40,975 bases of DNA from an uncultured Deferribacteres bacterium (GCA_964014485.1 CAXHAT010000055.1:1-40975); one strand, 5' to 3'. Counted from the first letter of the stretch, positions 104-18,043 are shown. Made by a program: numbers and translations. The notes: generated from the letters alone by a model not told the origin.

Positions 104-549
104 ACAGACGGCTTTTATTCGCTTTCCTTTTACTCGCACCGGCGGCGCTTTCGGCGCAAAAGCCCGGAATCTGGCTGGGCGTTTCCAAGCAGCACAAGAA
201 CAATATTATCGCTTACGATGCAGTGATTATGCCGCACAAAAACATCGGCATAGCCGGGAGCTACGCGCAAGAGCTTTGGGGGCGGACGCACATCTATTTC
301 ATCAAACAAAATGCGATGGCGCGACTCGGTCTGGTCGGGCGTTACAGCAACTTCGGCTTGCAAGGCGGAGTCAACTTTAACTGGCTCGGTATTTCTCCAG
401 GGTTTACGGTTTCCCGAAAGCGCGGCTATTATGTCACCGGAATGGTCTTTCTAAAAGAGACGGTCTATCTCAAAAGCGGCTGGTCGGAGTTGCAGGACGG
501 CGTGATCTTTGGGTTGGGGATCAATCCGATCTCCTTGCTCTTTGATTGA
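100..549 (+). CDS. Hypothetical exported protein, possibly a small outer-membrane beta-barrel
   Basis: Signal peptide MNRRLLFAFLLLAPAALSA/QK; Gly/aromatic-rich amphipathic strands, e.g. GVIFGLGI near the C-terminus. Confidence 0.65.
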   Translation: MNRRLLFAFLLLAPAALSAQKPGIWLGVSKQHKNNIIAYDAVIMPHKNIGIAGSYAQELWGRTHIYFIKQNAMARLGLVGRYSNFGLQGGVNFNWLGISPGFTVSRKRGYYVTGMVFLKETVYLKSGWSELQDGVIFGLGINPISLLFD

Positions 550-719
550 AATCGGAAATCGATTTCCGATTTAACCTAATGTTTTAGTAGAAAATGGAAA
601 CCGCTTTCCACTTTAACGGAGAACATCCCCCTGACCCCCTTCAAAGGGGGAATTTGAAATCGGAAATCGATTTCCGATTTGACCTAAGACTTTAGTAGAA
701 AACGGAAATCGCTTTCCAC
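546..719. repeat. 66-bp imperfect direct repeat (546-611 and 654-719), each copy holding a perfect 24-bp palindrome
   Basis: AAATCGGAAATCGATTTCCGATTT at 549-572 and 657-680; copies offset by 108 bp. Confidence 0.95.
623..654. repeat. Family D REP-like element, copy 1
   Basis: ACATCCCCCTGACCCCCTTCAAAGGGGGAATT; 31/32 identical to 17965-17996. Confidence 0.95.
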
Positions 720-820
720 ATTGATTTAAAAAGTCCATGATTTTTTCCCTTCCTTTTCCGATCTTACCCAAGTTGCAAAATGCAATACTGTCGGTGTGCA
801 TACGCATTTAAAAGACAAGG

Positions 821-1849
821 ATGTCCATTATGGATACACGTTATCAGGTATTTGTGAGTTCAACTTTCGCTGACCTTGAAGAAGAGCGGAAGAACGTGAT
901 TCAAACGTTGATGGAAATGAATTGCATTCCCGCTGGCATGGAGTTTTTTCCTGCAATTGACGAGGAGCAATTCGAGTTTATCAAGCGAGTAATTGATGAC
1001 AGCGATTACTATATCGTTATAATTGGTGGGAAATATGGCTCCTTGACAACTGAAGGAATCAGTTATACCGAAAAAGAATATGACTATGCGGTGAAAAAGG
1101 GATTGAAGGTAACAGCGCTTCTGCACAAATCCCCGAAGAGCCTTTCGCTTGGAAAATCGGAAGAAGACCCAGAACCCAGAAAGAGATTAGAGGTCTTTAG
1201 AAAAAAAGTATCAGAAAGCAAGCTTGTGAGATTCTGGGAAAAAGCATCAGAGCTACCTGGAATAGTAGCGCTCAGCTTACCAAAAACGATTAAAACCTAC
1301 CCAGCTATTGGTTGGGTTCGAGCAAATATTGCAGCAAACGAAGACGTGCTTTCTGAAATAAATCAACTGAGAAAAGAGAACACTGATCTTGAAGAAAAAA
1401 TACGATCATTAGAAGGCGTTAGAGTAGATGACTTGGCAAGTATGGACGACAAATTTAGCTTTACCCTCTGTAGCAAGTCCTTCAAAGGACATAGTACACC
1501 ATTTTCAATGGAATTGTCTTGGAATCAGATTTTTTGCTTGATAGCCGCCGACCTGATAAGTTATCCAACACAATATGAAGTAATGACTGCTTTGACTGGA
1601 GGTTTAATCAGAAAGACTCCTCCTGGCTTTTATGACGACTGTGAGGTCTATTTGAAAAAACAAGACATGCATCAGATAATGGTGCAACTCATGGCGCAAA
1701 ATCTGATAAACACTAGTTTTACTCAAAAAGCCTTGGATTCCGTAGTTGTCTGGTCGCTGACTAAGAAAGGACATCAGCACATGCTCAAAATATGCAGCGC
1801 CAAGACGCAACAAGAGCGACTTGGTGAACCTGATGCGAAAAAACGATAA
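821..1849 (+). CDS. DUF4062 domain protein with a coiled coil and an uncharacterised C-terminal domain; probable moron
   Basis: N-terminal [16 protein letters not shown]...PAGMEFF...[17 protein letters not shown]...[10 protein letters not shown] is typical of DUF4062; visibly more AT-rich than its neighbours. Confidence 0.85.
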
Positions 1850-2014
1850 ACCCACACACCTTGAATACATTCTGGTGGCAAACGCATAGTCAAAACGCCC
1901 ATCCTTAAACTCACCTATCTACCTTTTACAAATCCAGCAAAAACAATCCCTTTCTTTGTATCATGCGCCAGCGCAAGCGAGACGGAAAGCGCAGCTTTGA
2001 AAATCGACAACATT

Positions 2015-2039
2015 GGAGACGCAAACCTTGCGTCTCTAC
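2015..2039 (-). repeat. GTAG-type REP hairpin
   Basis: Minus strand reads GTAGAGACGCAAGGTTTGCGTCTCC: a 5' GTAG tetranucleotide overlapping a 9-bp stem. Confidence 0.75.
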
Positions 2040-2113
2040 GTTTCGCACTTGACGCTGGCACGGCGCGGGCTTGGACGGTCTCCTTCCCTGCGCCGGTTTT
2101 TAACGAAAGAAAT

Positions 2114-2138
2114 TGGATTCCCGCCTGCGCGGGAATGA
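2114..2138. repeat. Family C palindrome, copy 1 (ATTCCC-N8-GGGAAT type)
   Basis: TGGATTCCCGCCTGCGCGGGAATGA, identical to 6088-6112. Confidence 0.95.
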
Positions 2139-2145
2139 TTTAAAA

Positions 2146-2655
2146 ATGGCCTACAGCAACGACATTCGCGAGCAGGCTTTTGCGGTTTTTTGCCGGGTGA
2201 CTTCCCATGAAGAGACGGCGCAGGTGATGCGCGAACGCTTCCCGGAAGAGTGCGGCGCGATAACCAAGACAACCGTCTTTCGCTGGAAAAAAAAATACGA
2301 TTGGGAAGGACGCGAAGCCAAAATCATGGCGCAGGTCGCGGCGGAAAACGACGGCAATTTGATTTCGGATCGCAAGAGAATGCTCGGCGAAATGCGCACT
2401 TTGCGCAAGCGTTTGGTGCGGCAACTGGAAAAGGCTGAAGTCAAAAGCATGGAAGGCGGCGTTTCCGCCTACGGCAATATTTGCAAATGGATCATGCAGT
2501 TTTCCGGCCACGGCGAGGAAAAGCGCGCGGTGGACGACGTGGTCATGGTCTTGTTTGAAGTGCTCGGCGAGCACCCGAAGATCGCGCCGCTGATTCATGA
2601 AAACGAAGTTTTTCTGCTTGGCGAAATCAAGAAACGCCTGGAGCGTCCGGAGTGA
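2146..2655 (+). CDS. Probable terminase small subunit (HTH plus helical domain)
   Basis: N-terminal HTH-like MAYSNDIREQAF...TKTTVFRWKKKYDW; directly upstream of terL. ATG 2146 is preferred because the longer ORF start is just the family C repeat. Confidence 0.7.
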   Translation: MAYSNDIREQAFAVFCRVTSHEETAQVMRERFPEECGAITKTTVFRWKKKYDWEGREAKIMAQVAAENDGNLISDRKRMLGEMRTLRKRLVRQLEKAEVKSMEGGVSAYGNICKWIMQFSGHGEEKRAVDDVVMVLFEVLGEHPKIAPLIHENEVFLLGEIKKRLERPE

Positions 2656-4379
2656 AGGGGCAAGGGCGCAAAGGATCAAAGGCGCAGAGTGAAATTCTGC
2701 GCAGCGCTTCGCGCGCGCTCAAAGACATAAACACGGCCAAGAAACGTCGCTCGCACGATTGGGACTTTGCCGAGTGGCTGTGCAAGCATACGAGCGTGAA
2801 GGTCGGCGGCAGGCCGCGCAAGTGGTCGTTCAAGGGCTATGAGCCTTACAAACAAATCGCGGCGGACTTGCCGAACAGCCACGAAAACTGGCTGCTGAAG
2901 GGCGCGCAGATCGGCGCGAGCACGCTGATGATCGGTTACAATCTTTACTTGCCGTACTGGAAAGGTCTCGATTCAGCCTACGCCCTGCCGGACAAGGTGA
3001 TGATCAAGCCGTTTATGAAAACGCGCTTCTCGAAAGAGCAGGTCAGGCGCGACGGCGATCTCGGCGCGGTCTACCAGATGCACGAGTCGGACATGTACTA
3101 TGACTGCGGCGACAACTTTCTGTACTTCCTGGGCGCGAACGTGCTCTCGGAAACGATGAGCCGCCCGCTGGAGCAAATCTCGCTCGACGAGGTGACGATC
3201 ATCAACGCGGACGCGATGGAGTGGATGGAAGACCGGCTCGGCGCGGCCAGCTTCGGCCAGAAAAACGCCTTTACGATGGAGATGTATCCGGGCGGGACGG
3301 CGCACGTCGGCTATGAGAGCGGCAGACAAAACGTCTACCTGTTCAAGTGTCCGCACTGCGGCGAAGACGAGCAAAATCTGGAAGACGAGTTTTACCGCTC
3401 CAGCATGGCGGGCGAAGAGATTCCGCGCTGCGTGCATTGGAACGGGCGCAAATGGCAAGTGGTCTGCACCAAGTGCGGCCTGCCTTTTTCGCGGGAGAGC
3501 GCCGGGCGTTGGGTTGCAAAACATCCGACCCGCGATGTGAATTCGTGGCGCTTGCCGCAGTTGATTTTCGGCGGTCTCGATCTTGGCCGCGTCATGCGAC
3601 GCTGGCTCGCTTCGCGCTACAAGAAAAGCAAGCGCGCCAAGCTGCACTGCTCGATTCTGGCGATCCCCGACGCGGGCGACATGCAGCGCATCAACGAACA
3701 AGACATGCGCCTGCTGAAGCAAGACTATAAATTGCAACGCTCGGCCTTGTGGTCAGTCGGCGGCTGCGACGTGGGCAACTGGTGTCATACGGTTTTTTAC
3801 GATCTGGTTCAGGATCAAATGCGCCTGATTTGGGCGGAGAAGATCAACTCCGACCACATGGAAAGCCGCATTTGCGAATTGCTCGATAAGATGAATACGG
3901 TCAAGTACGTCATGGATGCGAAGCCGTTCGCGCCGCAAGTGCGCCGGATCGCGGACGCATTCCCGGACGTGGTCGTGCTGCACGATTACGCAGGCGACGG
4001 ACTGCAAGAGAACGAGAAGACGCACGCGGATCAGACCTACGCCAGCGTGCGCGAGGATCGCGACGATTCCCTGGATTATTACTGCGACCTGTTCAATCCC
4101 GAAGAGATTCTGCTGATGTTTCCGACGCTGGCCCCAGACGAAGACGGGCGCATGGTTGACTTTGAAAATTCAGAGTTCGCCAAACAGCATTACGTCGGTT
4201 CGCAAAAGACGGAAACGGAAGACAAGCGCCTCGGCAAGACCGTGCTGAAGTACCGCAAAAACTGCGACAATCATTACTTCATGGCGGGCAACTACGCACG
4301 CACGTCGTTGGTGCTGTTGGGGCAAGAGAATCGGGAGTTTGTGGGCTTAACGCCGGTATTTGGGAGTTTGAATGCTTGA
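2652..4379 (+). CDS. Terminase large subunit, lambda GpA-like
   Basis: Walker A-like LLKGAQIGAST, Walker B ISLDEV, zinc motifs CPHC and CTKC, nuclease motif GGCDVG, C-terminal DNHYFMA. Confidence 0.9.
   Translation: MKGQGRKGSKAQSEILRSASRALKDINTAKKRRSHDWDFAEWLCKHTSVKVGGRPRKWSFKGYEPYKQIAADLPNSHENWLLKGAQIGASTLMIGYNLYLPYWKGLDSAYALPDKVMIKPFMKTRFSKEQVRRDGDLGAVYQMHESDMYYDCGDNFLYFLGANVLSETMSRPLEQISLDEVTIINADAMEWMEDRLGAASFGQKNAFTMEMYPGGTAHVGYESGRQNVYLFKCPHCGEDEQNLEDEFYRSSMAGEEIPRCVHWNGRKWQVVCTKCGLPFSRESAGRWVAKHPTRDVNSWRLPQLIFGGLDLGRVMRRWLASRYKKSKRAKLHCSILAIPDAGDMQRINEQDMRLLKQDYKLQRSALWSVGGCDVGNWCHTVFYDLVQDQMRLIWAEKINSDHMESRICELLDKMNTVKYVMDAKPFAPQVRRIADAFPDVVVLHDYAGDGLQENEKTHADQTYASVREDRDDSLDYYCDLFNPEEILLMFPTLAPDEDGRMVDFENSEFAKQHYVGSQKTETEDKRLGKTVLKYRKNCDNHYFMAGNYARTSLVLLGQENREFVGLTPVFGSLNA
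2654..2692. repeat. Family A element A1 (left arm only, inside the terL 5' end)
   Basis: GAAGGGGCAAGGGCGCAAAGGATCAAAGGCGCAGAGTGA closely matches the left arm of A2. Confidence 0.9.
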
Positions 4380-4380
4380 A

Positions 4381-4492
4381 AAGGGGCAAAGTTGCAAAGG
4401 ATCAAAGGCGCAGAGTGAGACGCGCGGAGCGAAGCTCCGCCCAAAGACTTTGTCCCTTTGCGACTTTGATCCTTTGCCCCTTCTTAAAAAAA
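4381..4492. repeat. Family A element A2 (about 110-bp compound palindrome)
   Basis: AAGGGGCAAAG...octamer arm...GCGGAGCGAAGCTCCGC (4424-4440)...CTTTGCCCCTT followed by an A-run. Confidence 0.95.
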
Positions 4493-4582
4493 CAGATTGG
4501 ACTTGTTCGGCAGACGCGAGTTCAGTCTGGTTTGGATCGGCTTTGGCCGTCGTTGTGAGCGCGGCGGCGGTCAATGCCTTTT

Positions 4583-4685
4583 AGCAGTGAGCAGTGAGCA
4601 GTGAGCAGTGAGCAGTGAGCTGTAAGCAGTGAAGAGTAATTAGTGAAGACTAACAGTCTTCAGCCTAATAGACTAAAAGCCTAAT
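4583..4685. repeat. Family B heptamer array B1 plus CTAACAGC-like tail
   Basis: (AGCAGTG)x5 and degenerate copies, then CTAACAGTCTTCAGCCTAATAGACTAAAAGCCTAAT abutting ATG 4686. Confidence 0.95.
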
Positions 4686-7118
4686 ATGCTAAACTGGTTT
4701 CGAAAACTTTGGCGCAGATCGAGCGGGTTGAACGCTGACGAGTTGCTGCGCATGGCGCAGACGGCGCTGGCGGCGGAGGCGAACGGATCGGCAAAAGAGT
4801 CCGTCGTTGTTCCGGCGAACGGGCGCTCTTCGGTAGAGGAGTTCGGCACGATACACCAGGCGATGCAGCAAATGCTCGGTTGGTACGGCGACGGCTTGCA
4901 AGACGAACGGCTTTTTCAAGCGCTGGAATTTCTGTGCGAGTGTGCGCCCTATCATCCAGACATAAATCATGCGCTCAACAATCTGGTCAACATGGCCAAC
5001 AGCGGGCATTCGGTGAGCGTGGAAACAGGCTCGGATCGCGCGACGGAAGCGGCGCAAGAGCGACTCAATCAACAGGCGCATTCGCTCTATAAGCGCTCCG
5101 CCGGGATCGACGGCCTGATCAACCACTACTTGCGCCAGATCATGATCACCGGCGCGATTTCGAGCGAGGACGTACTGACCGGCGCGCTCGACGGCGTGGA
5201 GAAAATCGCCATTGTGCCGACGCGCAAGATTCGCTTTCAGGCGGACGGCGACGATTACGCGCCGTTTCAGAAAACCAACGACAGTCAATTGATTGCGCTG
5301 CATCCGGCGACCTACCGGTATTTCGCCTTGCAGACCAACGAGAATTCGCCCTACGCCCTGCCGCCCTTCGCCGCCGCGATTGACGACATACTGATCCAGA
5401 CGGACATGAAACAGAATCTCAAGTTCATTATGCGCAAGTTCGGCCTGCTTGGGTTGGTGGCGATGGTCATGAACAAGGGCAAAAAGAAGCCGAGCGAAAC
5501 CGAATCCGAGTACAACGCCCGGATGTCGAAGCATCAAAACGACACCCTGGTCGCCTTGCAAAAAAACTTCTACAAGGGTTTGATGGTGATGTTCGAAGAC
5601 AAGAAAATCGAGCATCACAACATCACCGGAGATGCGCGCGCGGCGAAAGACATTTGGAATCTGATCCGGCAGAATATCGCCAGCGGCATGGCGACCGATC
5701 CGGTGCTGTTCGGCATACCGACCAACTCGACCGAGACCTTTGCCAACGTCATCTATATGTTTATCATACGACAGGCGAACAATGTGCGCAGGCTGGTCGC
5801 CCGACGCATGGAATGCACTTATCGTTTGGATTTCTTGCTGCAAGGTCTGCCGGTGGAAGGCGTGAGCTTTCGCTTTGAAAAGAATCCGGCGCGCGATCCG
5901 CTGGCGGAAGGGCAGGCGCAGGCGACAATTGAGTCGGCAGCGATCAAAAAGGCGCAGGTCGGTATGATCGAGCCGGACGTTGCGGCGCAGGAATTGGGTT
6001 ACGACGGCTGGCACGATCCGGCGCTGATGCACGGGGCGGAACGGGTTTTCGGAGTCGGTGATGATCCGGGGTTGCGAGCGCATGGACTGGATTCCCGCCT
6101 GCGCGGGAATGACGGCGCGCTGACGCGCCGGACGTTCAGACTTAACAGTGGGCGGGAGCAGTATGAATTTGTCAGGCCGCGAGTGTTGGTTCAGGCCTCG
6201 GCGCACGCCTTCGCCCTCGCTTCGGAAGAGACGGTGCGCAAGACGCTGGCGAAGTGGCAAAAAGAATATCTCGATGCGATTCGACCCTTTCTTGGCGAAC
6301 AGGTCGAAGAGGCGGTTGAAGTGCTGGCGGCGTTTATTCGCCGGTCGAAATTGAGCGACTTCCGCGACGAAAAGGCTTTCGCGGAAGCGGCGTTCGCGAC
6401 CTTGTCAACGGCCTTCAATACCAAATTTCAGCAGGCCGACGCGCGCAAAGTGGTGAAGGATTCCGTCAAAGAGATTTACGAGTTCTACCGCCTGGAAGAC
6501 AAGGCGGCGTTTCCGAAAAGCGGCGGGGTCGCCTTTGCGATGGACTCCATCGACAAGCGTTCGCTCAACTTCATGACGCGCCTGGAGCGGCACTATCTTT
6601 CGAAGTTCATCTTCAACCAGAACACGGAAAAGCAGGTGCTCGACTTCCTGCAAACGCAGTTTCTGGAAAACGGCGACGGCCTGTTCGGGCGCACGAGCAG
6701 AGACGCAATTCAAACCTTGCAGGCGCTGGCGGTTGACCGGCTGGAATCCCTGACTGAATACGAAGCCGAGCGCATTATCAATACCGGCGTGCAGCGCATG
6801 AGAGCCTGGGCGAACATCGGGCAAATGTCGGATTCGGGCGTGCGGGTGGCGGAGATTTTCAACCCGTCGCCGGAGTCGGAAATCTGCAAGTTCATGGTCA
6901 ACGAGGTGAAGTACCTGCCCGTCGGCGAGGCGCGCAAGGCGGTGGACGAACTGAGCCAACTCACGCCGCGCCAGTTCGCGGGGCGCTTACGCAAGATTAC
7001 GCCGGAAGAGATCGCGAGCGAGGGCATTGTGAGCGCAACCCGCAACGGCTACGGCTTCCCGACTTACCATCCGAATTGCGCGACGCGATTGCTGGAGACG
7101 GAGAGAGATGCAGTGTAA
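4686..7118 (+). CDS. Portal protein fused to a Mu gpF/SPP1 gp7-like head morphogenesis domain
   Basis: Position after terL; about 450-aa portal-sized N-terminal part; C-terminal FPTYHPNCATRL resembles the gpF PPxHPNCRC motif. Confidence 0.75.
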   Translation: MLNWFRKLWRRSSGLNADELLRMAQTALAAEANGSAKESVVVPANGRSSVEEFGTIHQAMQQMLGWYGDGLQDERLFQALEFLCECAPYHPDINHALNNLVNMANSGHSVSVETGSDRATEAAQERLNQQAHSLYKRSAGIDGLINHYLRQIMITGAISSEDVLTGALDGVEKIAIVPTRKIRFQADGDDYAPFQKTNDSQLIALHPATYRYFALQTNENSPYALPPFAAAIDDILIQTDMKQNLKFIMRKFGLLGLVAMVMNKGKKKPSETESEYNARMSKHQNDTLVALQKNFYKGLMVMFEDKKIEHHNITGDARAAKDIWNLIRQNIASGMATDPVLFGIPTNSTETFANVIYMFIIRQANNVRRLVARRMECTYRLDFLLQGLPVEGVSFRFEKNPARDPLAEGQAQATIESAAIKKAQVGMIEPDVAAQELGYDGWHDPALMHGAERVFGVGDDPGLRAHGLDSRLRGNDGALTRRTFRLNSGREQYEFVRPRVLVQASAHAFALASEETVRKTLAKWQKEYLDAIRPFLGEQVEEAVEVLAAFIRRSKLSDFRDEKAFAEAAFATLSTAFNTKFQQADARKVVKDSVKEIYEFYRLEDKAAFPKSGGVAFAMDSIDKRSLNFMTRLERHYLSKFIFNQNTEKQVLDFLQTQFLENGDGLFGRTSRDAIQTLQALAVDRLESLTEYEAERIINTGVQRMRAWANIGQMSDSGVRVAEIFNPSPESEICKFMVNEVKYLPVGEARKAVDELSQLTPRQFAGRLRKITPEEIASEGIVSATRNGYGFPTYHPNCATRLLETERDAV
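6088..6112. repeat. Family C palindrome, copy 2, in-frame within the portal gene
   Basis: Identical to 2114-2138; lies within the codons for LDSRLRGND. Confidence 0.95.
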
Positions 7119-7142
7119 GCAGTGAACTGTAATCAGTGAATA
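7110..7142. repeat. Family B heptamer remnant B2
   Basis: GCAGTGTAAGCAGTGAACTGTAATCAGTGAATA, containing the portal stop codon. Confidence 0.8.
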
Positions 7143-7260
7143 GATGAAAGCGCGAGATTCGGCGTGAGAGCGACTTTTACGGCGAGACGCATCTTGTCGG
7201 GCGCAAAAAAGCGGCGGCATAGCCCTGGGACACGATGGGACAGGGTAAAATGGATTTGCG

Positions 7261-7292
7261 AAGACTGGAAGACTGAAATATTGGAGTTCTGG
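7261..7292. repeat. Degenerate octamer array upstream of the protease gene
   Basis: AAGACTGG AAGACTGA AATATTGG AGTTCTGG. Confidence 0.6.
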
Positions 7293-7296
7293 ATCG

Positions 7297-8564: not shown

Positions 8565-8600
8565 CAGTAATGAGTAAGCAGTGAACTGTAAACAGTCAAC
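8565..8600. repeat. Family B heptamer remnant B3
   Basis: CAGTAATGAGTAAGCAGTGAACTGTAAACAGTCAAC. Confidence 0.75.
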
Positions 8601-8979: not shown

Positions 8980-8981
8980 AA

Positions 8982-9086
8982 AAGGGGCAAAGGAACAAAG
9001 GCGCACAGGCGCAAAGTGTGATTCGCGGAGCAAAGCTCCGCTCGGTTACTTTGTCCCTTTGATCCTTTGACACTTCTCAAAAAAAA
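8982..9086. repeat. Family A element A3
   Basis: AAGGGGCAAAGGAACAAAGG...GCGGAGCAAAGCTCCGC (9025-9041)...CTTTGTCCCTTTGATCCTTTG followed by an A-run. Confidence 0.95.
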
Positions 9087-9099
9087 CGGAGTCAACAAC

Positions 9100-10227
9100 A
9101 TGGATTTAAAACAACTTATACGTTTCGCCAAAATGAACGGCGTTGACGTTGGCGCGTTGAGCGCGCTCGTGCCGGGGCCGGGCGCTGAAGTGGACGCTTC
9201 GAAGTTTAAAAAACTGAGCCTTGAAGCGGGCATGTATCAGGACGCGGCGCGCGACGGCGTAAGCTTCAGCGAGTTCCTGGAAAGGCAAGACCCCAGCGAA
9301 AACTATCCCGGCGTGGAGCTTGATGCATTTCAGCGCCAGCTTGCCGCGCACGGCCTTGCGGTCAAAGGGCCTGGCTGCGTCAATCTGGAGGCGTTTTATA
9401 AGCACGGCGCGGTGCTCTTTCCCGAATGGGTGGATCGGCAGGTGCGCGTCGGCCAGATTTTCAACACGCGGCACTTTCAGGACGATGACGTTGTACGGGT
9501 GGAAGAGCAGATTGACAGCAGCGCCTTTGAAGCGATGAAGGTCGACCCGATCACGGAAGACGACTACGCATACGCGCCCGTCGCCGAAGGGGCGGAAATC
9601 CCGCGCATCAAGGTGGATCACTCAGACGTGACCGGGAAATTGCGCAAGCACGGCTTTGTCCTGGAAGCGACCTACGATTTCCTTGCCGATCAGCGCATGG
9701 ACATGATTTCGGTCTGGCTGCAAATCGCAGCGCTCAAGCTGATCAAGGACAAGGCGGAGCACGCATTGGATATTCTGATCAACGGCGTGCCCGGCAACGC
9801 GAACCCCGCCGTGAACTATCCCTTGAGCAACGTCGATCTGACCAACTTTATCACCTTTAGCGAGAGCTTCGACGTTTACGAGCCGAGCCTGATGATCGCG
9901 GACACGGCGGGCGTGACGGCGATCAAAACGATCTCCGAGTTCGCCAGCCAGTTTATGGCTGCGGAATGGCTGCGGCGCGACCGTATGGAAACGCCGGTCG
10001 ACAGTATGATCAAAAAGCACGTCTATCCGAATTCGTCGCTCTTGACCAACAATATCGTCGGCGTGGATCAGCGCTTTGCGCTCAAGCGCATTGTGCGCGC
10101 GGGTTCCCGGCTGGTGGAAACGGACAAGTTGATCACGTCGCAGTGGCAGCAAATCGTCGTGAGCGAGAAAATCGCCTATGACAAGATGCTTTCCGGCGAG
10201 GTGGTCAAGGTTTGGGATTACTCCTAA
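9100..10227 (+). CDS. Major capsid protein (HK97 fold)
   Basis: 375 aa; VAEGAEIP and KLRKHGFVLEATYD motifs typical of HK97-fold capsids; GGAG upstream of ATG 9100. Confidence 0.85.
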   Translation: MDLKQLIRFAKMNGVDVGALSALVPGPGAEVDASKFKKLSLEAGMYQDAARDGVSFSEFLERQDPSENYPGVELDAFQRQLAAHGLAVKGPGCVNLEAFYKHGAVLFPEWVDRQVRVGQIFNTRHFQDDDVVRVEEQIDSSAFEAMKVDPITEDDYAYAPVAEGAEIPRIKVDHSDVTGKLRKHGFVLEATYDFLADQRMDMISVWLQIAALKLIKDKAEHALDILINGVPGNANPAVNYPLSNVDLTNFITFSESFDVYEPSLMIADTAGVTAIKTISEFASQFMAAEWLRRDRMETPVDSMIKKHVYPNSSLLTNNIVGVDQRFALKRIVRAGSRLVETDKLITSQWQQIVVSEKIAYDKMLSGEVVKVWDYS

Positions 10228-10273: not shown

Positions 10274-10306
10274 TCTAAACGTAAACCATAAATCACGGTG
10301 AATCAT

Positions 10307-10588: not shown

Positions 10589-10668
10589 TGCGGCGAATCG
10601 GCTGTTGGCTGCGGCGGCTGGGCGACTGGCTTCTGGAGCGGTTCCAACGCTTGAACAGTGAACAGTGA
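10588..10668 (+). CDS. Possible 26-aa amphipathic peptide
   Basis: TAATG overlap with the previous stop; MRRIGCWLRRLGDWLLERFQRLNSEQ; stop supplied by the heptamer array. Confidence 0.4.
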   Translation: MRRIGCWLRRLGDWLLERFQRLNSEQ

Positions 10669-10767
10669 ACAGTGAACAGTGAGCAGTGAGCAGTGAGCAG
10701 TGAGCAGTGAACTGTAAGCAGTTTTCAGCTAACAGCCTTCAGCCTAAACCCCTAACAGCCTAAAGAA
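10654..10767. repeat. Family B heptamer array B4 plus CTAACAGC tail
   Basis: (AACAGTG)x4 (AGCAGTG)x4 AACTGTA AGCAGTT, then CTAACAGCCTTCAGCCTAAACCCCTAACAGCCTAAAGAA-ATG. Confidence 0.95.
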
Positions 10768-11220: not shown

Positions 11221-11236
11221 CAACCCCCTAACATAA

Positions 11237-11265
11237 CCCCGTCAGGGTTCAGAACCCTGACGGGG
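11237..11265. repeat. Family E palindrome with perfect 14-bp arms
   Basis: CCCCGTCAGGGTTC-A-GAACCCTGACGGGG. Confidence 0.9.
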
Positions 11266-11277
11266 GTTGACTGCGGA

Positions 11278-11616
11278 GTGCAAATCATGTTGTTTTTGAA
11301 TATGCAAATCATGCTTTGGATGCAAATCTTCGGTGAAACGCCGGAGTTGTATTCGGCGCTGTTCGGTCAAACGATGGTAGTGGAAATCGCCGGGGTGATC
11401 GGCGTGACCAAGCTGTTTCGCAACACGGTCAACATCAAGGGCAAGTGGGCGCTCGTTTCGACGTTCGCCTTTAGCCTGGGCTACGCGCTTTGGCAGTACG
11501 GCCTGCAAGGACAAGGCGCGATGTACGGCCTGTTGATCGGCTCGCTCGCGGCGTTGAGTTTCTGGCTCACAAAGCGGACAGGGAAGACGGTGAATCCTGA
11601 AGGGAAAGGGGCATAG
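11278..11616 (+). CDS. Small membrane protein, holin-like (start uncertain)
   Basis: About three hydrophobic segments and a basic C-terminus (KRTGK); several alternative starts between 11278 and 11320. Confidence 0.55.
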   Translation: MQIMLFLNMQIMLWMQIFGETPELYSALFGQTMVVEIAGVIGVTKLFRNTVNIKGKWALVSTFAFSLGYALWQYGLQGQGAMYGLLIGSLAALSFWLTKRTGKTVNPEGKGA

Positions 11617-11716
11617 GCGCAAAGGCACAGAGTGACAAAGTAACTGAGCGCGGCTCCGCCTCGCCAGCGACGCTTTGCCCCTTTGATCCTTTGTCCATCT
11701 GCCCCTTCTAAAAAAA
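11606..11716. repeat. Family A element A4 (degenerate core)
   Basis: AAGGGGCATAGGCGCAAAGGCACAGAGTG...GCTCCGCC...CTTTGCCCCTTTGATCCTTTG...GCCCCTTCT, then an A-run into ATG 11717; contains the upstream TAG stop. Confidence 0.9.
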
Positions 11717-12151
11717 ATGGCGAATCCGAAAATAGACTTTAAGCTCGACGACGCTGAATTCCGCAAGCTGGCCAGTCAGGTCATGCCGGAGAAGGCGGAG
11801 AAAGGCTTGCGCCGCACCGCTGGGCAGATCGAACGGGCGGCGGCGAAGCGCGCGCCAGTGGAGACCAAGAACCTGGTCAATACGATCACCAAATCGTTTT
11901 CCGGTTCCGGCTACCACGTGGAAGCCGAGATAAAGGCCACGGCGACTTATGCGCTTTTTGTCCACGAAGGCACTGGGCTTTTCGGCCCGAAGGCGCAGAA
12001 GATCACGCCGGTGAACGCAAGGGCGTTGAAGATCATGACCCCGAACGGCGTGATTTACCGCAAGAGCAGCAAGGGTCAGAAGCCGCAGCCGTTTCTCAAA
12101 GACGCTTTCGAAATGGAAGCGCCGAAATTGATACCGAGAATTCTGGAGTAG
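11717..12151 (+). CDS. HK97 gp10-family neck/tail-completion protein
   Basis: AKRAPVETKNLVNTI, YALFVHEGT and GQKPQPFLKDAF motifs. Confidence 0.9.
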   Translation: MANPKIDFKLDDAEFRKLASQVMPEKAEKGLRRTAGQIERAAAKRAPVETKNLVNTITKSFSGSGYHVEAEIKATATYALFVHEGTGLFGPKAQKITPVNARALKIMTPNGVIYRKSSKGQKPQPFLKDAFEMEAPKLIPRILE

Positions 12152-12260
12152 TGGCAAAGGCGCATAGGCGCAAAGGATCAAAGTGGACGAGCGGAGCGAA
12201 GCTCCGCCAGTTACACTCTGTGCCTTTGTCCCTTTGCCACTCTGCCCCTTCTTAAAAAAA
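12151..12260. repeat. Family A element A5
   Basis: GTGGCAAAGGCGCATAGGCGCAAAGGATCAAAG...GCGGAGCGAAGCTCCGC (12191-12207)...GCCCCTTCTTAAAAAAA-ATG. Confidence 0.95.
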
Positions 12261-12740
12261 ATGACTGAACTCATCGACAGACTCGAAGAAATTCTGCTCG
12301 CGGCGACGGCGACCGGCGAGGCGCTGGAAGGTTGGCAGATTATGACTTCCCTGCACGACGGACTGGCCGACAAATCGATTTATATTCGCGGCGACGGCGA
12401 GGACATCAAGACCGAAGCGAACCCGCTCGAATATGTGGAAGCGCAGGTGACGTTCCTGATTCTGAAGCATATCGGCAAGCACAATCCGGCGACGATGAAA
12501 AGACACGACTACCAGACGACGGCGGAGACGGGCGGACGGGCTTTGCGGGGCGTATTTTACGGCAATCTGACGCTCGTAACGGCGGGCGATCCGGGCGGAC
12601 TATTGAAGTGCGCGCGCGACTTGCGCTTTACGCGCTCGCAGCCGACCGCAACCACGCTCAAACAAGGCTGGTTTGCTGGCAATGAATTGACGATGAAGGT
12701 GAAATATCTTTATCGCGACGGGGGGATCAATAAGCAGTAA
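12261..12740 (+). CDS. Probable tail terminator
   Basis: 159 aa, between the gp10-like gene and the tail tube gene; ATG 12261 follows the repeat. Confidence 0.55.
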   Translation: MTELIDRLEEILLAATATGEALEGWQIMTSLHDGLADKSIYIRGDGEDIKTEANPLEYVEAQVTFLILKHIGKHNPATMKRHDYQTTAETGGRALRGVFYGNLTLVTAGDPGGLLKCARDLRFTRSQPTATTLKQGWFAGNELTMKVKYLYRDGGINKQ

Positions 12741-12779
12741 GCTGTGATCAGTAATCAGTAATCAGTAATCAGTAAATAG
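12733..12779. repeat. Family B heptamer array B5
   Basis: AGCAGTA AGCTGTG (ATCAGTA)x4; contains the upstream TAA stop. Confidence 0.9.
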
Positions 12780-12792
12780 AACGAGGCGAGAT

Positions 12793-13026: not shown

Positions 13027-13029
13027 ATC

Positions 13030-13572: not shown

Positions 13573-14084
13573 GCGACGTGAAACAATTTGACCTGAACGG
13601 CAAGAAGTACGCGCTTGAAGACTTCTCGGTCGATCAGGACGAGTACAGCGCCGATATTCTGGCGGACATTGGATTCAACAGACTATTGCCGCACGCGCCC
13701 GCCATTTATAAAATCTATGAAGCCATGACGGCGGACGAGGAAAATGATGCGGAAGCAAAGGGCGATTCAGGTGCGGAAGACGTTTTGGGCGGCTTGGGTC
13801 TCAAGGACTTTGCGGGGCTTCTTGAAATCGATGTTGACGGTTTTATCAGAGCGATAGCCGGAAAAGCGATTTTGTTTCGCATGATCGCGGCGGCGCTTAC
13901 GCCGGTCAACAGCCATTGGTCTAAAGAAGTGATTGATGAAATCGAGCCTTTCATCAGGCGCATGAAGCGCTCGGAATACTTTCCTGTGGTCGCTTTTTTT
14001 TTAGAGAAGTTCGGGCTGTCAATGAACTCAGAAGGCGATACTTCCCCGACGCTAAAAAAAGCGAAGACGGGAAACCGGAAATAG
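13569..14084 (+). CDS. Tail assembly chaperone (gpG-like)
   Basis: Between tail tube and tape measure genes; slippery T9A at 13994-14003. Confidence 0.75.
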   Translation: MSDVKQFDLNGKKYALEDFSVDQDEYSADILADIGFNRLLPHAPAIYKIYEAMTADEENDAEAKGDSGAEDVLGGLGLKDFAGLLEIDVDGFIRAIAGKAILFRMIAAALTPVNSHWSKEVIDEIEPFIRRMKRSEYFPVVAFFLEKFGLSMNSEGDTSPTLKKAKTGNRK

Positions 14085-14395
14085 ACGGCGAGCGCAGCTT
14101 CAACGCCGCCAGAGTCCTTTGGGAACTGGCGGAAGGCGACGTGCAGCGCATCCCGGAAATCAGGCGCGCCAAAGTTAAAGTCATGCTCGGATGGCTCTAT
14201 GAAAAGCGGCGGCGCGAGCTTGAAGAGATTCGCTTTCAGGCGGCTTTGCACGGCGTGCAACTCAAAGGCGAAGGCGGGCGGACGGCGAGCCTGGAAGCGC
14301 AATTGGCGGGCGTGACGGAGAAGCCCTACAGCGTGAAGCGCGTCAAAGTCTCGCCGGAAGAATTGGAACGAAGAAGGAAGGCGTTAGGCCATTAG
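14000..14395 (+). CDS. Tail chaperone -1 frameshift extension (gpT-like)
   Basis: The -1 frame is open from 13940 to 14395 and reads FREVRAVNELRRRYF...LWELAEGDVQRIPEIRRAKVKVMLGWL. Confidence 0.75.
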   Translation, partial: FREVRAVNELRRRYFPDAKKSEDGKPEIDGERSFNAARVLWELAEGDVQRIPEIRRAKVKVMLGWLYEKRRRELEEIRFQAALHGVQLKGEGGRTASLEAQLAGVTEKPYSVKRVKVSPEELERRRKALGH

Positions 14396-14453
14396 GCTTT
14401 AGACTATTAGCCAAAAACCTGACAGCCTAAAGCCTAACAACCTAAAGGTCTAA
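14379..14453. repeat. TTAGGC/GCCTAA short-period inverted repeat element
   Basis: Left arm GTTAGGCCATTAGGCTTTAGACTATTAG, right arm CTGACAGCCTAAAGCCTAACAACCTAA; contains the upstream TAG. Confidence 0.85.
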
Positions 14454-14457
14454 AAGA

Positions 14458-16605
14458 ATGGCGACGGTTGCGGACATTGTCGGGTTTCTCAGGCTGCGCG
14501 GCGGATCGCAGTTTGATCGCGAATTGAAAAAGCGCCTCACCGTGGCGCGGCAAAGTTTTGCCACGGTCGGCAACGCGATAACCACGATTGCGGCGGGCGG
14601 CATTTTCCAGAAGATCAATGCGGCGGCGAATGCGCTGGAAACATCGCAGCGCAAGCTGAATGCGACTTCCAGGCTCACCGGCATTGAGTTTGGCAAACTT
14701 CGAAGCTTCTCCGAGGATGCGCGCAAAGAGCTTGGCCTGAGCACGAAACAGGCGAACGAGTTCACCATTGCCGTGTCGAAGCTCACCAATAAGGCTGGAG
14801 ACGTGGACAAGACCGGCGACGCGATTTCGCGCTTGCTCGATCTGGCGGCGGCGCAGGGTCTCAACGCCGAGGAAGCTTTGGTCGCCATTCAGCAGGCGAT
14901 TCTCGGCATTGACGAAGGGACGGACAAGCTTTTCCAGAAAAACCCGTCCGTGATTTACGCCGAATACGCCAAGCAGATCGGCACGACGGCGGGCAAGCTC
15001 AACGACCAACAGAAGGCGCAAGCCCTGCTCAACGCCGTGATGACGGACGGTCTGAAGGTGCAGGGCGAATATCAGAACTTTTTGCAAAGCGCAGCCGGAC
15101 GGCAATCGACTTTGGCGGTAAAAACCGAGCAGCTTGCGGCCAAGTTCGGCAAGCTGGCGCAGCAGATCGGCGGGCCGGTTGTGGCGGCGCTGACCAAAGC
15201 GGCGGATTTCTTTATCAATGCGCCGCCCTGGGTGCGCAATCTGGCGGCGGCTTTGGGTATTGCCACCGTTGCGCTCAAACTCTTCGGCGGCGCGATTCAG
15301 GCGCTTTTTGTCAGTCTCGGGCCGGTCGGCTGGCTGTCAATTGCGCTGGGGACGATTGCCACGGCGTTTTTTGCGTTAGGCGCGGCAACCGAAGCGAGTC
15401 GCGACAAGCTTGCCGGATACCGCAAGGAATTGGATAAATTCAGAGAGACGGTGCGCGGGCTGACCGACGACGACCTGAAAGCGCAGGAAACGGCCATGCG
15501 CAGGCAAATCGCTTTCCTGGAGAGCATGGCGACGAATATAAGGCAGATTCGCAGACGCGCCCTGTTCGGCAATGCGGACGAAAAAGAACTTCAGTTCGTG
15601 CGCGTCAATCGCGACGTGGGTCAGCAACTCAAGGAAGCGCGCGACAAGCTTGCCGCCTTTATGCAGGAAACGGAAAGACGGGACAAGGAACACAAGGCCA
15701 AGCTGCTGGAGCAAAGAAAACAACTCTCGGCTGAAGAGAAAGAACTCGAAGAGAACCGAGTGCGGTTTGAGTTTGAGCAGGGGGAAATCAGCCGGGCGCA
15801 GTATCTTGCATTTCTGAAAAAACGGCAAGGCGATTTCAAGGAATGGTCGAGCGATTGGCTGGGGCTGCACAAAGATATTCTTGAGCAGGAAAAAGCGTTG
15901 CAGGTCGAGCAAAACGCCGAGGTCAAGCGCGCGGCTGATGATCAACTGGCGCTGCAAATGAAGATTCCTGAACAGATGCAATTCGCCAGCGAGCAGGCGC
16001 TCGATGCAATGGCGACGAAGCTGGCGCTTATGGAAGACGTGGCGCGCGAAAAAACAATGGCGATGGTGGAAATCATCGGGACGTTTGCCGGGAATATTGG
16101 ATCAGCCTTCGCAGATGCGCTGCGCGGCGACCGGGGCGGCTTCAAGGAAGCGCTCAAGAGCATTCTCATTGATACGCTCGGCTTTATCCAGCGCTTTTTC
16201 ATTCTGGCGAAAATCAAGACGATCATCGAAGGCGTGCTCAATCCTTTCACGGCGCTCAAAAGTTCCGCCGGTCTGATTGCGGCGTTCGCCGCTTTGGAAG
16301 CGGCGAAAGGGGCGATTGCCAGCTTTGCCGAGGGCGGGATCGTTTCACGCCCGACGTTGGCGATTGTCGGCGATTCGCCGCGCGGCCCGGAGATCATCGC
16401 GCCGAAGCAGGATTTTCTGGCGCATTCGCAGGCGCTCATCAGCGAAGCTTTGGCGGGCAATCGAACGCGAGGGGGCGACTTCAAGATCGTCAATAATTTC
16501 AATACGCCGCTGCAGGATCGCAGGCAGGCCAGACAGTTGACGGAAAAGAATCTGAAACCGGAATTGAGACGACAACAGAAACGCGAACGAAGGCATTTGG
16601 TTTAG
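14458..16605 (+). CDS. Tape measure protein
   Basis: 715 aa, Ala-rich helical, hydrophobic segments, C-terminal FAEGGIVSRPTLAIVGD...GPEIIAP motif. Confidence 0.9.
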   Translation: MATVADIVGFLRLRGGSQFDRELKKRLTVARQSFATVGNAITTIAAGGIFQKINAAANALETSQRKLNATSRLTGIEFGKLRSFSEDARKELGLSTKQANEFTIAVSKLTNKAGDVDKTGDAISRLLDLAAAQGLNAEEALVAIQQAILGIDEGTDKLFQKNPSVIYAEYAKQIGTTAGKLNDQQKAQALLNAVMTDGLKVQGEYQNFLQSAAGRQSTLAVKTEQLAAKFGKLAQQIGGPVVAALTKAADFFINAPPWVRNLAAALGIATVALKLFGGAIQALFVSLGPVGWLSIALGTIATAFFALGAATEASRDKLAGYRKELDKFRETVRGLTDDDLKAQETAMRRQIAFLESMATNIRQIRRRALFGNADEKELQFVRVNRDVGQQLKEARDKLAAFMQETERRDKEHKAKLLEQRKQLSAEEKELEENRVRFEFEQGEISRAQYLAFLKKRQGDFKEWSSDWLGLHKDILEQEKALQVEQNAEVKRAADDQLALQMKIPEQMQFASEQALDAMATKLALMEDVAREKTMAMVEIIGTFAGNIGSAFADALRGDRGGFKEALKSILIDTLGFIQRFFILAKIKTIIEGVLNPFTALKSSAGLIAAFAALEAAKGAIASFAEGGIVSRPTLAIVGDSPRGPEIIAPKQDFLAHSQALISEALAGNRTRGGDFKIVNNFNTPLQDRRQARQLTEKNLKPELRRQQKRERRHLV

Positions 16606-16732
16606 AAGGGACAAAGGCGCAAAGGGTCAAAGGGTCAAAGGATCAAAGGCACACAGGCACAGAGTGTGAATCGCGGAGCGAAGCTCCGCCTTACTACTTT
16701 GCCCCTTTGATCCTTTGCTCCTTTGCCCCTTC
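16605..16732. repeat. Family A element A6 (expanded left arm)
   Basis: GAAGGGACAAAGGCGCAAAGGGTCAAAGGGTCAAAGGATCAAAGG...GCGGAGCGAAGCTCCGC (16673-16689)...CTTTGCCCCTTC. Confidence 0.95.
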
Positions 16733-16744
16733 CAAAGGAAAACA

Positions 16745-17011
16745 ATGGATCAGACTGTACAGCAATTGGTTGCGCAAGCGCCGGGCGTGGCGGGCGTGGT
16801 GATGGTGATGTTGATATTATTGCGCTACATCCAGGCGGCTGAAAGGACGCGCGCGGAAACCTACAAAGTAACCAGTGACAAGCTCGCCGTCGCCCAGGAA
16901 AAAACGGCGCAAGCAATTGAAGCCAACACGAAAATGATGGGGCGCGCCCTGGCCGTTATCGAGCGTCATGAAAAGGCGCTGGACGCAATTGAGCGGCGAT
17001 TGAATCAGTGA
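16745..17011 (+). CDS. Small single-TM plus coiled-coil protein (BhlA/XhlA-like holin candidate)
   Basis: One N-terminal hydrophobic helix followed by a coiled coil; AGGA upstream. Confidence 0.55.
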   Translation: MDQTVQQLVAQAPGVAGVVMVMLILLRYIQAAERTRAETYKVTSDKLAVAQEKTAQAIEANTKMMGRALAVIERHEKALDAIERRLNQ

Positions 17012-17035
17012 ACAGTGAACAGTGAACAGTGAACA
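17004..17035. repeat. Family B heptamer array B7
   Basis: ATCAGTG (AACAGTG)x3; contains the upstream TGA. Confidence 0.9.
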
Positions 17036-17056
17036 AAGCAACTTAGGAGACGCACT

Positions 17057-17554
17057 ATGCTCAAGACAAAAGATCAAGTGAAATCGATTGGCTCGGTGGA
17101 AGATTTGGAAAAGGCGATGAAGGAATTGGCCTTAGTACACTTCAAGCAACAGGAAGCTTTGGGAGAAATCAACGGCCAAATGTCAGAACTCAAGGAAAAA
17201 CTGGCGGCGAAAACCAAGCCGTTTTCCGAGCGCATCGCCGCGCTGAATATGATGATCGAGAACTACTGCACCGAGCAAAAAGCGGTGCTGTTCAATGAGA
17301 AAAAGCGCAGCCTGAAACTGCAATTCGGGCAGGTGGGTTTCAAGGCTTCGAAAGCGCTCGAAACCACGGAAAAGACGCTCAAAATTTTACTCAGCCTGCC
17401 GCTGAAAGTCAAAAAGATGTACTTGAAGATGACTCCCGCCATTGACAAGGCGGCGCTCAAAAAAGCGCCCGCCGAAGAGTTGAAAAAATACGACGCGAAA
17501 ATCGTTGAAAACGAGAATTTCTTCTGTAAGCCGAATCAAGTCGTCTCGGCCTGA
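17057..17554 (+). CDS. gam: Mu Gam-like host-nuclease inhibitor (DNA end-binding)
   Basis: Long N-terminal coiled coil, then LFNEKKRSLKLQFGQVGFKAS, IDKAALKK and C-terminal ENFFCKP, the pattern of the Mu Gam family; AGGAG RBS. Confidence 0.85.
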   Translation: MLKTKDQVKSIGSVEDLEKAMKELALVHFKQQEALGEINGQMSELKEKLAAKTKPFSERIAALNMMIENYCTEQKAVLFNEKKRSLKLQFGQVGFKASKALETTEKTLKILLSLPLKVKKMYLKMTPAIDKAALKKAPAEELKKYDAKIVENENFFCKPNQVVSA

Positions 17555-17579
17555 CGGGAGGACGGAAGGCGGAGAACAC

Positions 17580-17602
17580 AGGGGCGCGATGCTCGCGCCC
17601 TT
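17580..17602. repeat. REP-like hairpin
   Basis: GGGCGCGA-TGC-TCGCGCCC at 17582-17600. Confidence 0.65.
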
Positions 17603-17612
17603 TAAATGCGAG

Positions 17613-17774
17613 ATGAAGTACATCAAGATTGACCAATACGGACTGTTTCTATTCAAGTACCGCTTTGCCAACGAAGCCATGATGGAAAGAATTCGCAGAC
17701 AGCCGGAACCTGCAAAGCTTTATCATCACTACAAGCTTTTGGGTCTCAATATCTTCGTGAGACGAGAAAGGTGA
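17613..17774 (+). CDS. Small hypothetical protein
   Basis: MKYIKIDQYGLFLF...; stop overlaps the next GTG start. Confidence 0.5.
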   Translation: MKYIKIDQYGLFLFKYRFANEAMMERIRRQPEPAKLYHHYKLLGLNIFVRRER

Positions 17775-17965
17775 TTAAGAATATTCGAAAACGCATCCAG
17801 GCAATGCTCGATTTACAGGCCAAGTATAAAAGACGGGCGTATCTCAAGAGCATGTTTTCGCAAACAAATAACGGAGAGATCGCCAAGCATCATGAAGCGA
17901 AAATGCTTGCGATAAGCGCGGAATACGAAAAATACCGCTTCTGGTGGATGAAACCCTTGCAGTGA
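17771..17965 (+). CDS. Small basic hypothetical protein
   Basis: 64-aa ORF coupled to the previous gene (GTGA). Confidence 0.5.
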   Translation: MIKNIRKRIQAMLDLQAKYKRRAYLKSMFSQTNNGEIAKHHEAKMLAISAEYEKYRFWWMKPLQ

Positions 17966-18043
17966 CATCCCCCTGCCCCCCTTCAAAGGGGGAATTGGCA
18001 ACAGCCTACAGCCTAACAGTCTTTAGCCTAACAGCCTAAAAAC
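17965..18043. repeat. Family D element copy 2 (17965-17996) followed by a CTAACAGC array
   Basis: ACATCCCCCTGCCCCCCTTCAAAGGGGGAATT, then CAACAGCCTACAGCCTAACAGTCTTTAGCCTAACAGCCTAAAAAC-ATG. Confidence 0.95.

Follow-up and report, generated by a model that had tools for sequence, protein, structure and literature searches.

The window analysed here is the complete 40,975-bp contig C55 of a metagenome-assembled genome (G000) from an uncultured Deferribacteres bacterium, which comprises 8.4 Mb in 465 contigs with 50% guanine plus cytosine (GC). Phage genes occupy positions 100-27609 as a single plus-strand block that encodes the small and large terminase subunits (TerS and TerL), an 810-aa portal protein, a protease, a small virion protein, the major capsid protein, an HK97 gp10-like connector, an LIC12611-like tail protein, a Mu Gam-like protein, a frameshifted chaperone pair, a 1256-aa protein, and fibre-like proteins. 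From position 27743 onward the contig carries ordinary host genes, including nusA and infB; the type-IX secretion sorting domain encoded by one host gene is in keeping with the FCB group. The phage part has a GC content of 54% and the flank 48%. Between positions 546 and 18043, the late operon encoding the head and tail proteins is saturated with gene-less elements composed of reiterated words of 7 or 8 nucleotides (nt), and these elements sit at the junctions between genes.

An earlier note on this DNA had claimed that nearly every head-tail junction holds a repeat, and that the repeats lie exactly at gene boundaries with all reading frames intact. Our inspection of all 18 places that it listed bears this out: multi-copy family repeats are present at 15 of them, and the other three have single hairpins or no spacer. 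A few individual entries do not stand. The place listed as 2655 is a 4-nt gene overlap with merely a two-word resemblance within the TerL reading frame, and the junctions at 10227/10307, 11220/11278 and 17554/17613 have one hairpin apiece and no multi-copy family. Counting every junction from 546 to 18043 (n = 21), three are tight or overlapping and one (14084/14141) has unique sequence. A tandem-repeat finder reports periods of 7 and 8 in 3-8.7 copies at at least 11 places between 4376 and 18039, so that the repeats are tandem arrays in the sense of at least 3 copies of a 5-11-nt unit. The same note counted at least seven families. Several of these are real, but the count splits them too finely, as the family B and CTAACAGC words form one CAGY-N3-4 word class, and its GTAG-type hairpins cannot be identified as a family.

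Family A elements are hairpins of 100-140 nt in which a run of CAAAGGNN words forms the left arm and complementary NNCCTTTG words form the right arm. They are found at 4379, 8979, 11616, 12151 and 16605, with the core GCGGAGC-NNN-GCTCCGC in 4 of the 5 copies, and they fold at -33.7 to -70.8 kcal/mol (z -3.1 to -8.5). The first copy, A1 (4377..4486), follows TerL, has CAAAGGNN arms and a GCGGAGCGAAGCTCCGC core, and folds at -54.6 kcal/mol (z -6.2; minus strand -54.1). A2 (8981..9068; -40.4 kcal/mol, z -4.2) lies between a decoration-like gene and the major capsid gene. The left end of A3 (11597..11709), which has a variant core, enters the upstream reading frame. At A4 (12150..12253; -51.2 kcal/mol, z -6.1), the upstream TAG stop codon adjoins the first word, and the right end, ...CCCCTTCTTAAAAAAAATG, enters the next start codon. 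In both of these copies the left end reaches the upstream gene, and the TAG stop codon falls in a word spelled GGCATAGG rather than GGCAAAGG. The longest copy, A5 (16605..16732; -70.8 kcal/mol, z -8.5), has 7 left-arm words and follows the gene for a 715-aa tail protein. We rejected a terminator model for family A because none of the five elements is among the 36 terminator-like sites, a number that is itself not above chance (28.8 expected, standard deviation 5.3). There is no Rfam 15 match at the gathering score; the sole hit is a chance-level match of A5 to a microRNA precursor (30.9 bits vs a gathering score of 96). As a separate observation, the first codons of TerL (2652-2675) read GTGAAGGGGCAAGGGCGCAAA, which amounts to two family-A-like words in coding sequence and may be chance or a relic.

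Inverted arms of reiterated 7-8-nt words are present in family A and in a hairpin at 14393; the arrays of family B, (CAGTGAR)n or (CAGTAAT)n, have no complementary arm. All B arrays are on the plus strand. Clean arrays lie at 4583-4632, 10652-10722, 12726-12776 and 17001-17035, and degenerate remnants of 3-4 words lie at 7114-7145 (CAGTGAA/CTGTAAT words starting at the portal stop codon) and at 8570-8600 (after the protease gene). After B1, (AGCAGTG)x7, come degenerate words, a small hairpin (4645-4661), and AGCCTAA words as far as the portal ATG; this whole stretch (4583..4685) is unstructured (z -0.3). B2, (TGAACAG/TGAGCAG)x8.7, starts at a stop codon and is followed by CAGCTAA/CAGCCTAA words that run to the next ATG (10652..10764 in total; unstructured, z +1.7). 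B3, (ATCAGTA)x7 (12726..12776), spans a stop codon, and B4, (TGAACAG)x4.9 (17001..17035), starts at a stop codon upstream of the Mu Gam-like gene. Words of the AGCCTAAN/CAGCCTAA type that reach a start codon occur at 4633-4685, 10723-10764, 14393-14447 and 18000-18039. At 14393..14447 a hairpin of AGCCTAAA/TTTAGGCT-type words (-18.1 kcal/mol, z -4.2) is followed by more such words up to the ATG. A hairpin model for the composites of B and CAGCCTAA words was rejected since their folding is no better than that of shuffled sequences.

The remaining families are represented more sparsely. Family D, written ACATCCCCCTGM-CCCCCTTCAAAGGGGG-AAT, has two plus-strand copies. The first (623..653), spelled ACATCCCCCTGA-CCCCCTTCAAAGGGGG-AAT, lies between two family E units. 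The second, D2 (17965-17995), starts directly after a stop codon and is followed by ACAGCCTA words that run to the ATG of the 1256-aa gene, so that the combined element spans 17965..18039. Immediately before this gene, two short overlapping reading frames (17613-17774 and 17771-17965) occupy the usual place of a frameshift tail-chaperone pair. Family C (ATTCCC-N8-GGGAAT) has one junction copy, the palindrome GGATTCCCGCCTGCGCGGGAATGA at 2115..2138, immediately upstream of the TerS start codon, and a second copy at 6089..6112 within the portal reading frame; neither is assigned to a strand. This portal-internal GGATTCCCGCCTGCGCGGGAATGA copy falls in a long C-terminal extension past the portal-family match (residues 68-447). 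Family E is found ahead of a DUF4062 gene, beyond the head-tail operon. It consists of two plus-strand copies of an approximately 64-nt unit (549-612 and 657-720), each with a perfect 24-bp palindrome (AAATCGGAAATCGATTTCCGATTT) and an imperfect one. Judged by this arrangement, the pair looks like a four-operator control region. A genome search found the E motif confined to C55 except for 2 isolated hits. Two further hairpins complete the inventory: a single perfect 13-bp hairpin at 11237..11265 that belongs to no multi-copy family, and a GC-rich hairpin, GGGCGCGATGCTCGCGCCC, at 17582..17600. The latter stands on one side of the Mu Gam-like gene (17057-17554; DNA end protection) and B4 on the other, and this gene, located amid tail genes, resembles an inserted extra gene.

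The elements are seated at their junctions in a regular way. B arrays start within the upstream stop codon (TGA-ACAG-TGA-...), and with a TGA or TAA in each word of 7 or 8 nt, all three frames are closed within about 21 nt. Their orientation is biased: CAGTRAN arrays follow a same-sense stop codon in 4 of 4 cases in the phage and in 11 of the 13 host cases that have a nearby gene end. The element at the capsid junction takes up the part nearest the stop codon, and the final 20 nt or so before the ATG, which hold a GGAG, stay free; this is also the layout found in related phages whose junctions are empty of such elements. Elements that landed at or on the stop codon, and persisted only where their orientation was stop-rich, would be seated in this way; so would arrays that grew by slippage from the stop region.

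We compared the density of repeats in the phage with that in the rest of the genome by two measures. The first, an unbiased one, is the share of 15-mers that occur at least 3 times in the genome, which was used instead of 12-mers because the latter are uninformative at this genome size, and which was applied to host intergenic regions of 40-320 nt; beyond the window, gene models are crude longest-open-reading-frame calls. Twelve of 18 phage junctions have at least 5% repeated 15-mers, as do 684 of 2836 host intergenic regions (24%; Mann-Whitney p = 3e-4). The second measure is the number of arrays with a period of 7 or 8. The genome holds 396 merged array loci (0.047 per kb), and 188 of 276 arrays lie outside predicted reading frames. 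Among 1287 genome windows of 18 kb, with a mean of 0.93 arrays, those on C55 are the densest, with up to 16 arrays; the best window outside C55 has 7. Repeated 15-mers thus give the phage an enrichment of about 3-fold, and arrays per kb one of about 17-fold, array counts being dependent on thresholds. Many contigs start or end in a heptamer or octamer array (e.g. C9, C70, C137, C250, C279, C329, C398 and C415), indicating that the repeats break the assembly and that genome-wide repeat counts are underestimates.

Equal repeat density in host intergenic DNA had been named beforehand as the outcome that would reduce the phenomenon to passive accumulation, and the phage instead lies far above the host average. 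By that explanation, junction insertions unseen by selection would have built up in an old, silent, decaying prophage. The host is indeed repeat-rich, with repeated 15-mers in about a quarter of its intergenic regions, and the portion of the element carried by C55 shows neither an integrase gene nor lysis genes. Decay, however, is hard to reconcile with structural reading frames that are all open, including those of 1256, 956 and 810 aa, with an intact frameshift arrangement of the tail chaperones, with a GC content that still differs from that of the flank, and with relatives on viral contigs that show the same habit. We consider passive build-up very improbable.

The words themselves are shared by phage and host. 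Those common to both are CAGTRAN, CAAAGGNN, AGYCTAAN, the CCCCCTTCAAAGGGGG hairpin, and ATTCCC-N8-GGGAAT. CAGTRAN arrays are found at 16 host sites, many of them at contig ends; CAAAGGNN arms are found on 9 other contigs, together with a common end motif, GAAGGGGCAAAGG; the exact D core occurs 12 times in the genome, 10 of them at host sites beyond C55; and ATTCCC-N8-GGGAAT has 237 sites genome-wide, 67 of them within predicted reading frames. Host operons show this layout too: (CAGTAAG)n lies behind a stop codon, a loop separates it from (CAGTTTA)n or (CAGCTCA)n, and the next start comes after these; the whole folds as a long hairpin. In the acrB operon on C111, TGGANNNN/NNNNTCCA arms fill four consecutive junctions. 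Two such host hairpins are strongly asymmetric between strands but differ in the strand they prefer: on C154 (L254:2356-2500) the heptamer hairpin folds at -47.6 kcal/mol in the sense orientation and -30.5 kcal/mol in the antisense, and on C115 (L253:2430-2575) the values are -40.7 and -77.8 kcal/mol, the opposite sense, with wobble pairs on one strand only in both. The notion that repeats are delivered specifically to this phage is therefore not tenable, since the same families fill host operon junctions and about one quarter of host intergenic regions have repeated 15-mers. Likewise, the absence of repeats from the 18-27.6 kb block and from host DNA is true within the window and false for the host genome overall. 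Only the A core and family E are essentially limited to C55, with the exception of a 1.6-kb contig, C463. This contig (1-1602) has two family A hairpins, one with the GCGGAGCGAAGCTCCGC core, around reading frames without a family match, and it could be a part missing from this phage or from a related one. Taken together, we judge that the junction repeats very probably originate in host families.

The shared copies also bear on an explanation in which nothing moved and each array simply grew in place, by slippage, from a seed near a stop codon. Word number and spelling do differ between copies, and the B arrays do begin inside the stop codon. In addition, the over-representation of intergenic heptamers is published, with slippage proposed as its cause (PMC4692102). 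Slippage alone does not predict dispersed A copies with common ends (GAAGGGGCAAAGG...CCTTTGCCCCTTC) and recurring cores, of which GCGGAGCGAAGCTCCGC is present in 4 phage copies and on C463, and GCGCGATGCTCGCGC is present both at 17582 and inside an A-like element on contig C443. Nor does it predict the recurrence of the composite order, B and then CAGCCTAA words, at three junctions, or the tight link to a gene family that we describe below. We find an origin by slippage alone improbable.

That gene family encodes small four-helix-bundle proteins (PF05635 / TIGR02436, "four helix bundle protein"), the family of proteins associated with 23S ribosomal RNA (rRNA) intervening sequences, and in the host its genes are located between word arms. 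A link of this kind was among the checks proposed at the outset, and it is tight: a period-7/8 array lies no more than 150 bp from 8 of the 9 host PF05635 genes. On C58 (34862-35176), family A words (CAAAGG/CCTTTG) flank the gene; its counterpart on C250 (153-470) is bordered by CTGTGAG words and by CAGTRAN words in complement. Each of the two main word families of the phage thus has a cassette in the host. The same association is seen in two unrelated genomes that host distant relatives of the phage, where 9 of 11 PF05635 hits are bracketed by inverted heptamer arms. One of these, at locus L261 (G062:C5:19705-23019) of a Zixibacteria genome, is a four-helix-bundle cassette with GGGTTGC/GCAACCC arms between what look like groES and groEL, both genes having been identified by eye from the adjoining sequence. 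The phage copies would be at most gene-less relatives of this word-armed cassette. The other proposed partner, a transposase associated with repetitive extragenic palindromes (REPs), known as RAYT, finds no such support. Since none of the 7 Y1 transposase genes lies within 8 kb of an array or within 5 kb of an ATTCCC-N8-GGGAAT site, we rejected the RAYT/REP model for both the arrays and family C. Likewise, no transposase partner was found by which the elements could be classed as miniature inverted-repeat transposable elements.

One way to read the gene link is that the words are DNA or RNA sites bound by the host four-helix-bundle proteins, which would let the host tag, silence or control the operon, or let the phage titrate the proteins. 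Each four-helix-bundle gene has its own word family, and the phage uses the words of two host cassettes (C58 and C250). Moreover, the constant CAAAG part of the A words is kept beyond the needs of pairing, and their variable bases often mismatch. Against this, the corresponding Coxiella protein has been reported as probably not made in vivo (PMC4990558), and we regard binding arrays as quite improbable.

We then turned to related phages. A search with the capsid protein alone gave no relative in genome contigs, viral contigs, or 60 related genomes; the most similar proteins (P0002-P0005) have 48-54% identity, and profile scans recovered loci with 25-41% capsid identity. Three of these, L005, L085 and L006 (36-41% identity), have junctions of 45-100 nt in the head module, which goes against the premise of a normally compact operon in this group of phages. 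The junctions hold unique sequence with ribosome-binding sites and occasional hairpins. In the proposed comparison of filled and empty junctions, these three relatives are empty, and a fourth, L086 (38% identity), has filled junctions. L086 uses the words of the window: four D-like hairpins, each immediately behind a stop codon, GCAAAGR words, and a CAGTGAG/CAGTAAT array after the capsid gene. Its filled junctions coincide only partly with those of the window; two that are shared, one following TerL and one preceding the capsid gene, carry different elements in the two phages. More distant relatives have arrays of other words (L024, 9; L051, 7; L236, 10; L192, 8; L045, 5), and L089 has 8 arrays with CACAAAGA/CTTTGGTG arms. 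The L051 word, CAATCSR, recurs at 60 places across the genome of its host, where one four-helix-bundle gene has it on either side. The relatives that have arrays made from their own hosts' words show 25-40% capsid identity. Among viral contigs, five have GGGGCAAAGG words at gene junctions, and (CAGTGAG)4 is present as 15 stretches on 13 contigs, three of them on a single 44.5-kb contig. Genome G000 also contains two more phage-like clusters, one on C13 (36000-62643, that is, 36-62.6 kb to the contig end, with portal and capsid genes) and one on C62 (20000-39134, or 20-39 kb, with a terminase gene), and their junctions are compact or unique.

Array load in the relatives was compared with the number of host four-helix-bundle genes for 50 of the 80 genome-contig loci. 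In hosts with at least 3 PF05635 genes, we counted 27 arrays in 181.5 kb (1.49 per 10 kb), and 6 of 10 loci have at least 2 arrays. In hosts with zero PF05635 genes, we counted 9 arrays in 550 kb (0.16 per 10 kb), and only 1 of 28 loci has at least 2 arrays.

These comparisons also bear on the explanation that the elements are spacers selected by the phage, with this phage clade keeping or recruiting structured and unstructured junction modules that process late messenger RNA, protect 3' ends, and determine the ratios of proteins. Phage T7 has modules that act like this in its intercistronic RNase III sites. Several observations would be expected if spacers were selected: the load is specific to this phage among the three phage-like clusters in its genome; arrays recur in one capsid clade across hosts of several phyla; the window and L086 have two filled junctions in common, after TerL and before the capsid gene, with different elements; no reading frame is broken and the elements cover precisely the interval between stop codon and start region; and the words are also found at junctions of 13 other viral contigs. 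However, neither the type nor the position of elements is conserved between relatives, the words track the host rather than the phage, and L005, L085 and L006 do without elements altogether, as does the 18-27.6 kb block of the phage itself. The hairpins are also not terminator-like. We therefore view selected spacers as a serious but unlikely explanation.

The reading that we favour, in which our confidence somewhat outweighs our doubt, is that gene-less, word-armed elements of the host have come to occupy the phage junctions, and that those of the hairpin class are cut from, or cut, the late transcript. The host families consist of tandem 7-8-nt words, present as single arrays or as the inverted arms of 100-140-nt hairpins. 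The phage would have acquired them in this host lineage and not from a phage ancestor. Insertion would have occurred at or on the upstream stop codon, such that the element spans to the next start region, and replication slippage would then shift the length of the element. Such insertions would be tolerated because the TGA or TAA in the sense-strand words closes any frame within a few codons. The A hairpins would form long double-stranded RNA to be cut by host RNase III, as with rRNA intervening sequences. The late transcript would thereby be split between cistrons rather than blocked, so that the insertions would do no harm and might even be of use. The predicted stems are long, imperfect and double-stranded, a type of structure that RNase III cuts, and an RNase III gene is present in the host (G000 C21:44448-44834). 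That RNase III cuts the hairpin class is a tentative prediction from the stems, in which we place somewhat less confidence than doubt.

A number of observations weigh against the host-element reading and should be set beside it. First, no period-7/8 arrays are present in the C13 and C62 clusters. A host process acting evenly on resident DNA thus fails to explain the load, and residence time in the lineage, the open junction layout of the capsid clade, or selection must contribute to it. Second, the relationship between array load and host gene number (Mann-Whitney p = 0.005; Spearman rho = 0.31) was obtained with 50 genomes that are related and non-independent, so the p-value overstates the case. 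Third, no four-helix-bundle gene is present in the window, as searched with Pfam and NCBIfam, or in any phage-related locus; a custom profile run over six frames gave 0 hits among 21,537 reading frames. Fourth, the commonest word family of the host, TGGANNNN, is absent from the phage. Fifth, family A folds equally well on both strands, an absence of asymmetry that fits a DNA-level palindrome as well as an RNA, and the B arrays are unstructured (z +1.5 to +1.7), so that the RNase III idea cannot apply to these purine-rich, stop-laden spacers. Finally, inspection by eye recognised no target-site duplication at the element ends, and no pair of empty and filled alleles was seen; insertion is therefore not demonstrated.

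Four known systems resemble these elements in part. The closest are the 23S rRNA intervening sequences that bear a reading frame in Coxiella burnetii and Leptospira (Warrier et al. 2016, PMC4990558). According to that report, the Coxiella element has a 28-bp terminal stem, a reading frame for the four-helix-bundle protein S23p, and tandem GACAGAT heptamers whose number differs from strain to strain; RNase III excises it, making the 5' cut in the first repeat's position; and both rRNA intervening sequences and the S23p protein are described there as unexplained. The long inverted-repeat stem and the tandem heptamers recur here, and the same S23p / PF05635 protein family is found in the host beside the same words. 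The phage elements differ in that they lie in no 23S rRNA helix but between protein-coding genes, have no reading frame, and have arms composed wholly of reiterated words. Moreover, RNase III excision of the intervening sequences is published, whereas cutting of the phage elements is predicted from their stems.

The second resemblance is to over-represented heptanucleotide repeats (Mrazek et al. 2007, and the short tandemly repeated repetitive sequences of Calothrix, STRR, both as cited in Rehm et al. 2015, PMC4692102). As summarized in that source, intergenic heptanucleotide repeats have been known since 1990-2007 to be over-represented in bacteria, with no function or origin assigned, and they are 7-nt tandem repeats that sometimes form inverted pairs and vary in length between strains. 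Those published repeats are chromosomal; those described here also include 8-nt words, end motifs and cores, a link to a gene family, and the saturation of a phage operon. The third resemblance is to REPs, bacterial interspersed mosaic elements (BIMEs), and their RAYT-associated forms (REPINs), which are likewise short, dispersed intergenic palindromes in many copies, and family C, with its 237 sites, resembles REP. No Y1 gene lies near the repeats described here, though, and their partner is a four-helix-bundle protein without known enzymatic activity. The fourth is to the RNase III sites of phage T7, hairpins that also separate cistrons within a long phage transcript; processing of this sort is the likely route by which such elements could do no harm or be of use. 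Each T7 site is short and unique, is encoded by the phage and has a conserved position, whereas the elements described here belong to host-wide families and lack conserved positions.

A literature search outside subscription journals found no papers on word-armed repeats in phage operons, or on a link between the cassette and heptamers beyond Coxiella. New here are a phage late operon saturated with gene-less word elements, host-specific words in related phages, a dose relation with the number of host cassettes, and two array-free clusters as a negative control.

The phage holds about sixteen such elements in one co-transcribed, inducible unit, and its relatives offer both empty junctions and junctions filled with the words of other hosts. 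A cultivable relative would thus permit direct tests of RNA cutting, of mobility, and of reading by four-helix-bundle proteins. For annotators, the finding means that repeats at phage junctions can be host-derived and are not necessarily phage regulatory signals. A further and rather improbable extension is that the words constitute a host-specific RNA (or DNA) code that is read by the matching four-helix-bundle proteins together with RNase III. If so, a phage clade of FCB-group bacteria would have to adopt the words of its current host at almost all late-gene junctions for the proper cutting and expression of its long late transcript, the junction repeats would record its adaptation to hosts, and intercistronic processing of messenger RNA would be the first function for bacterial heptamer repeats. 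This phage shows unusually clearly how such bacterial repeats settle at gene boundaries.

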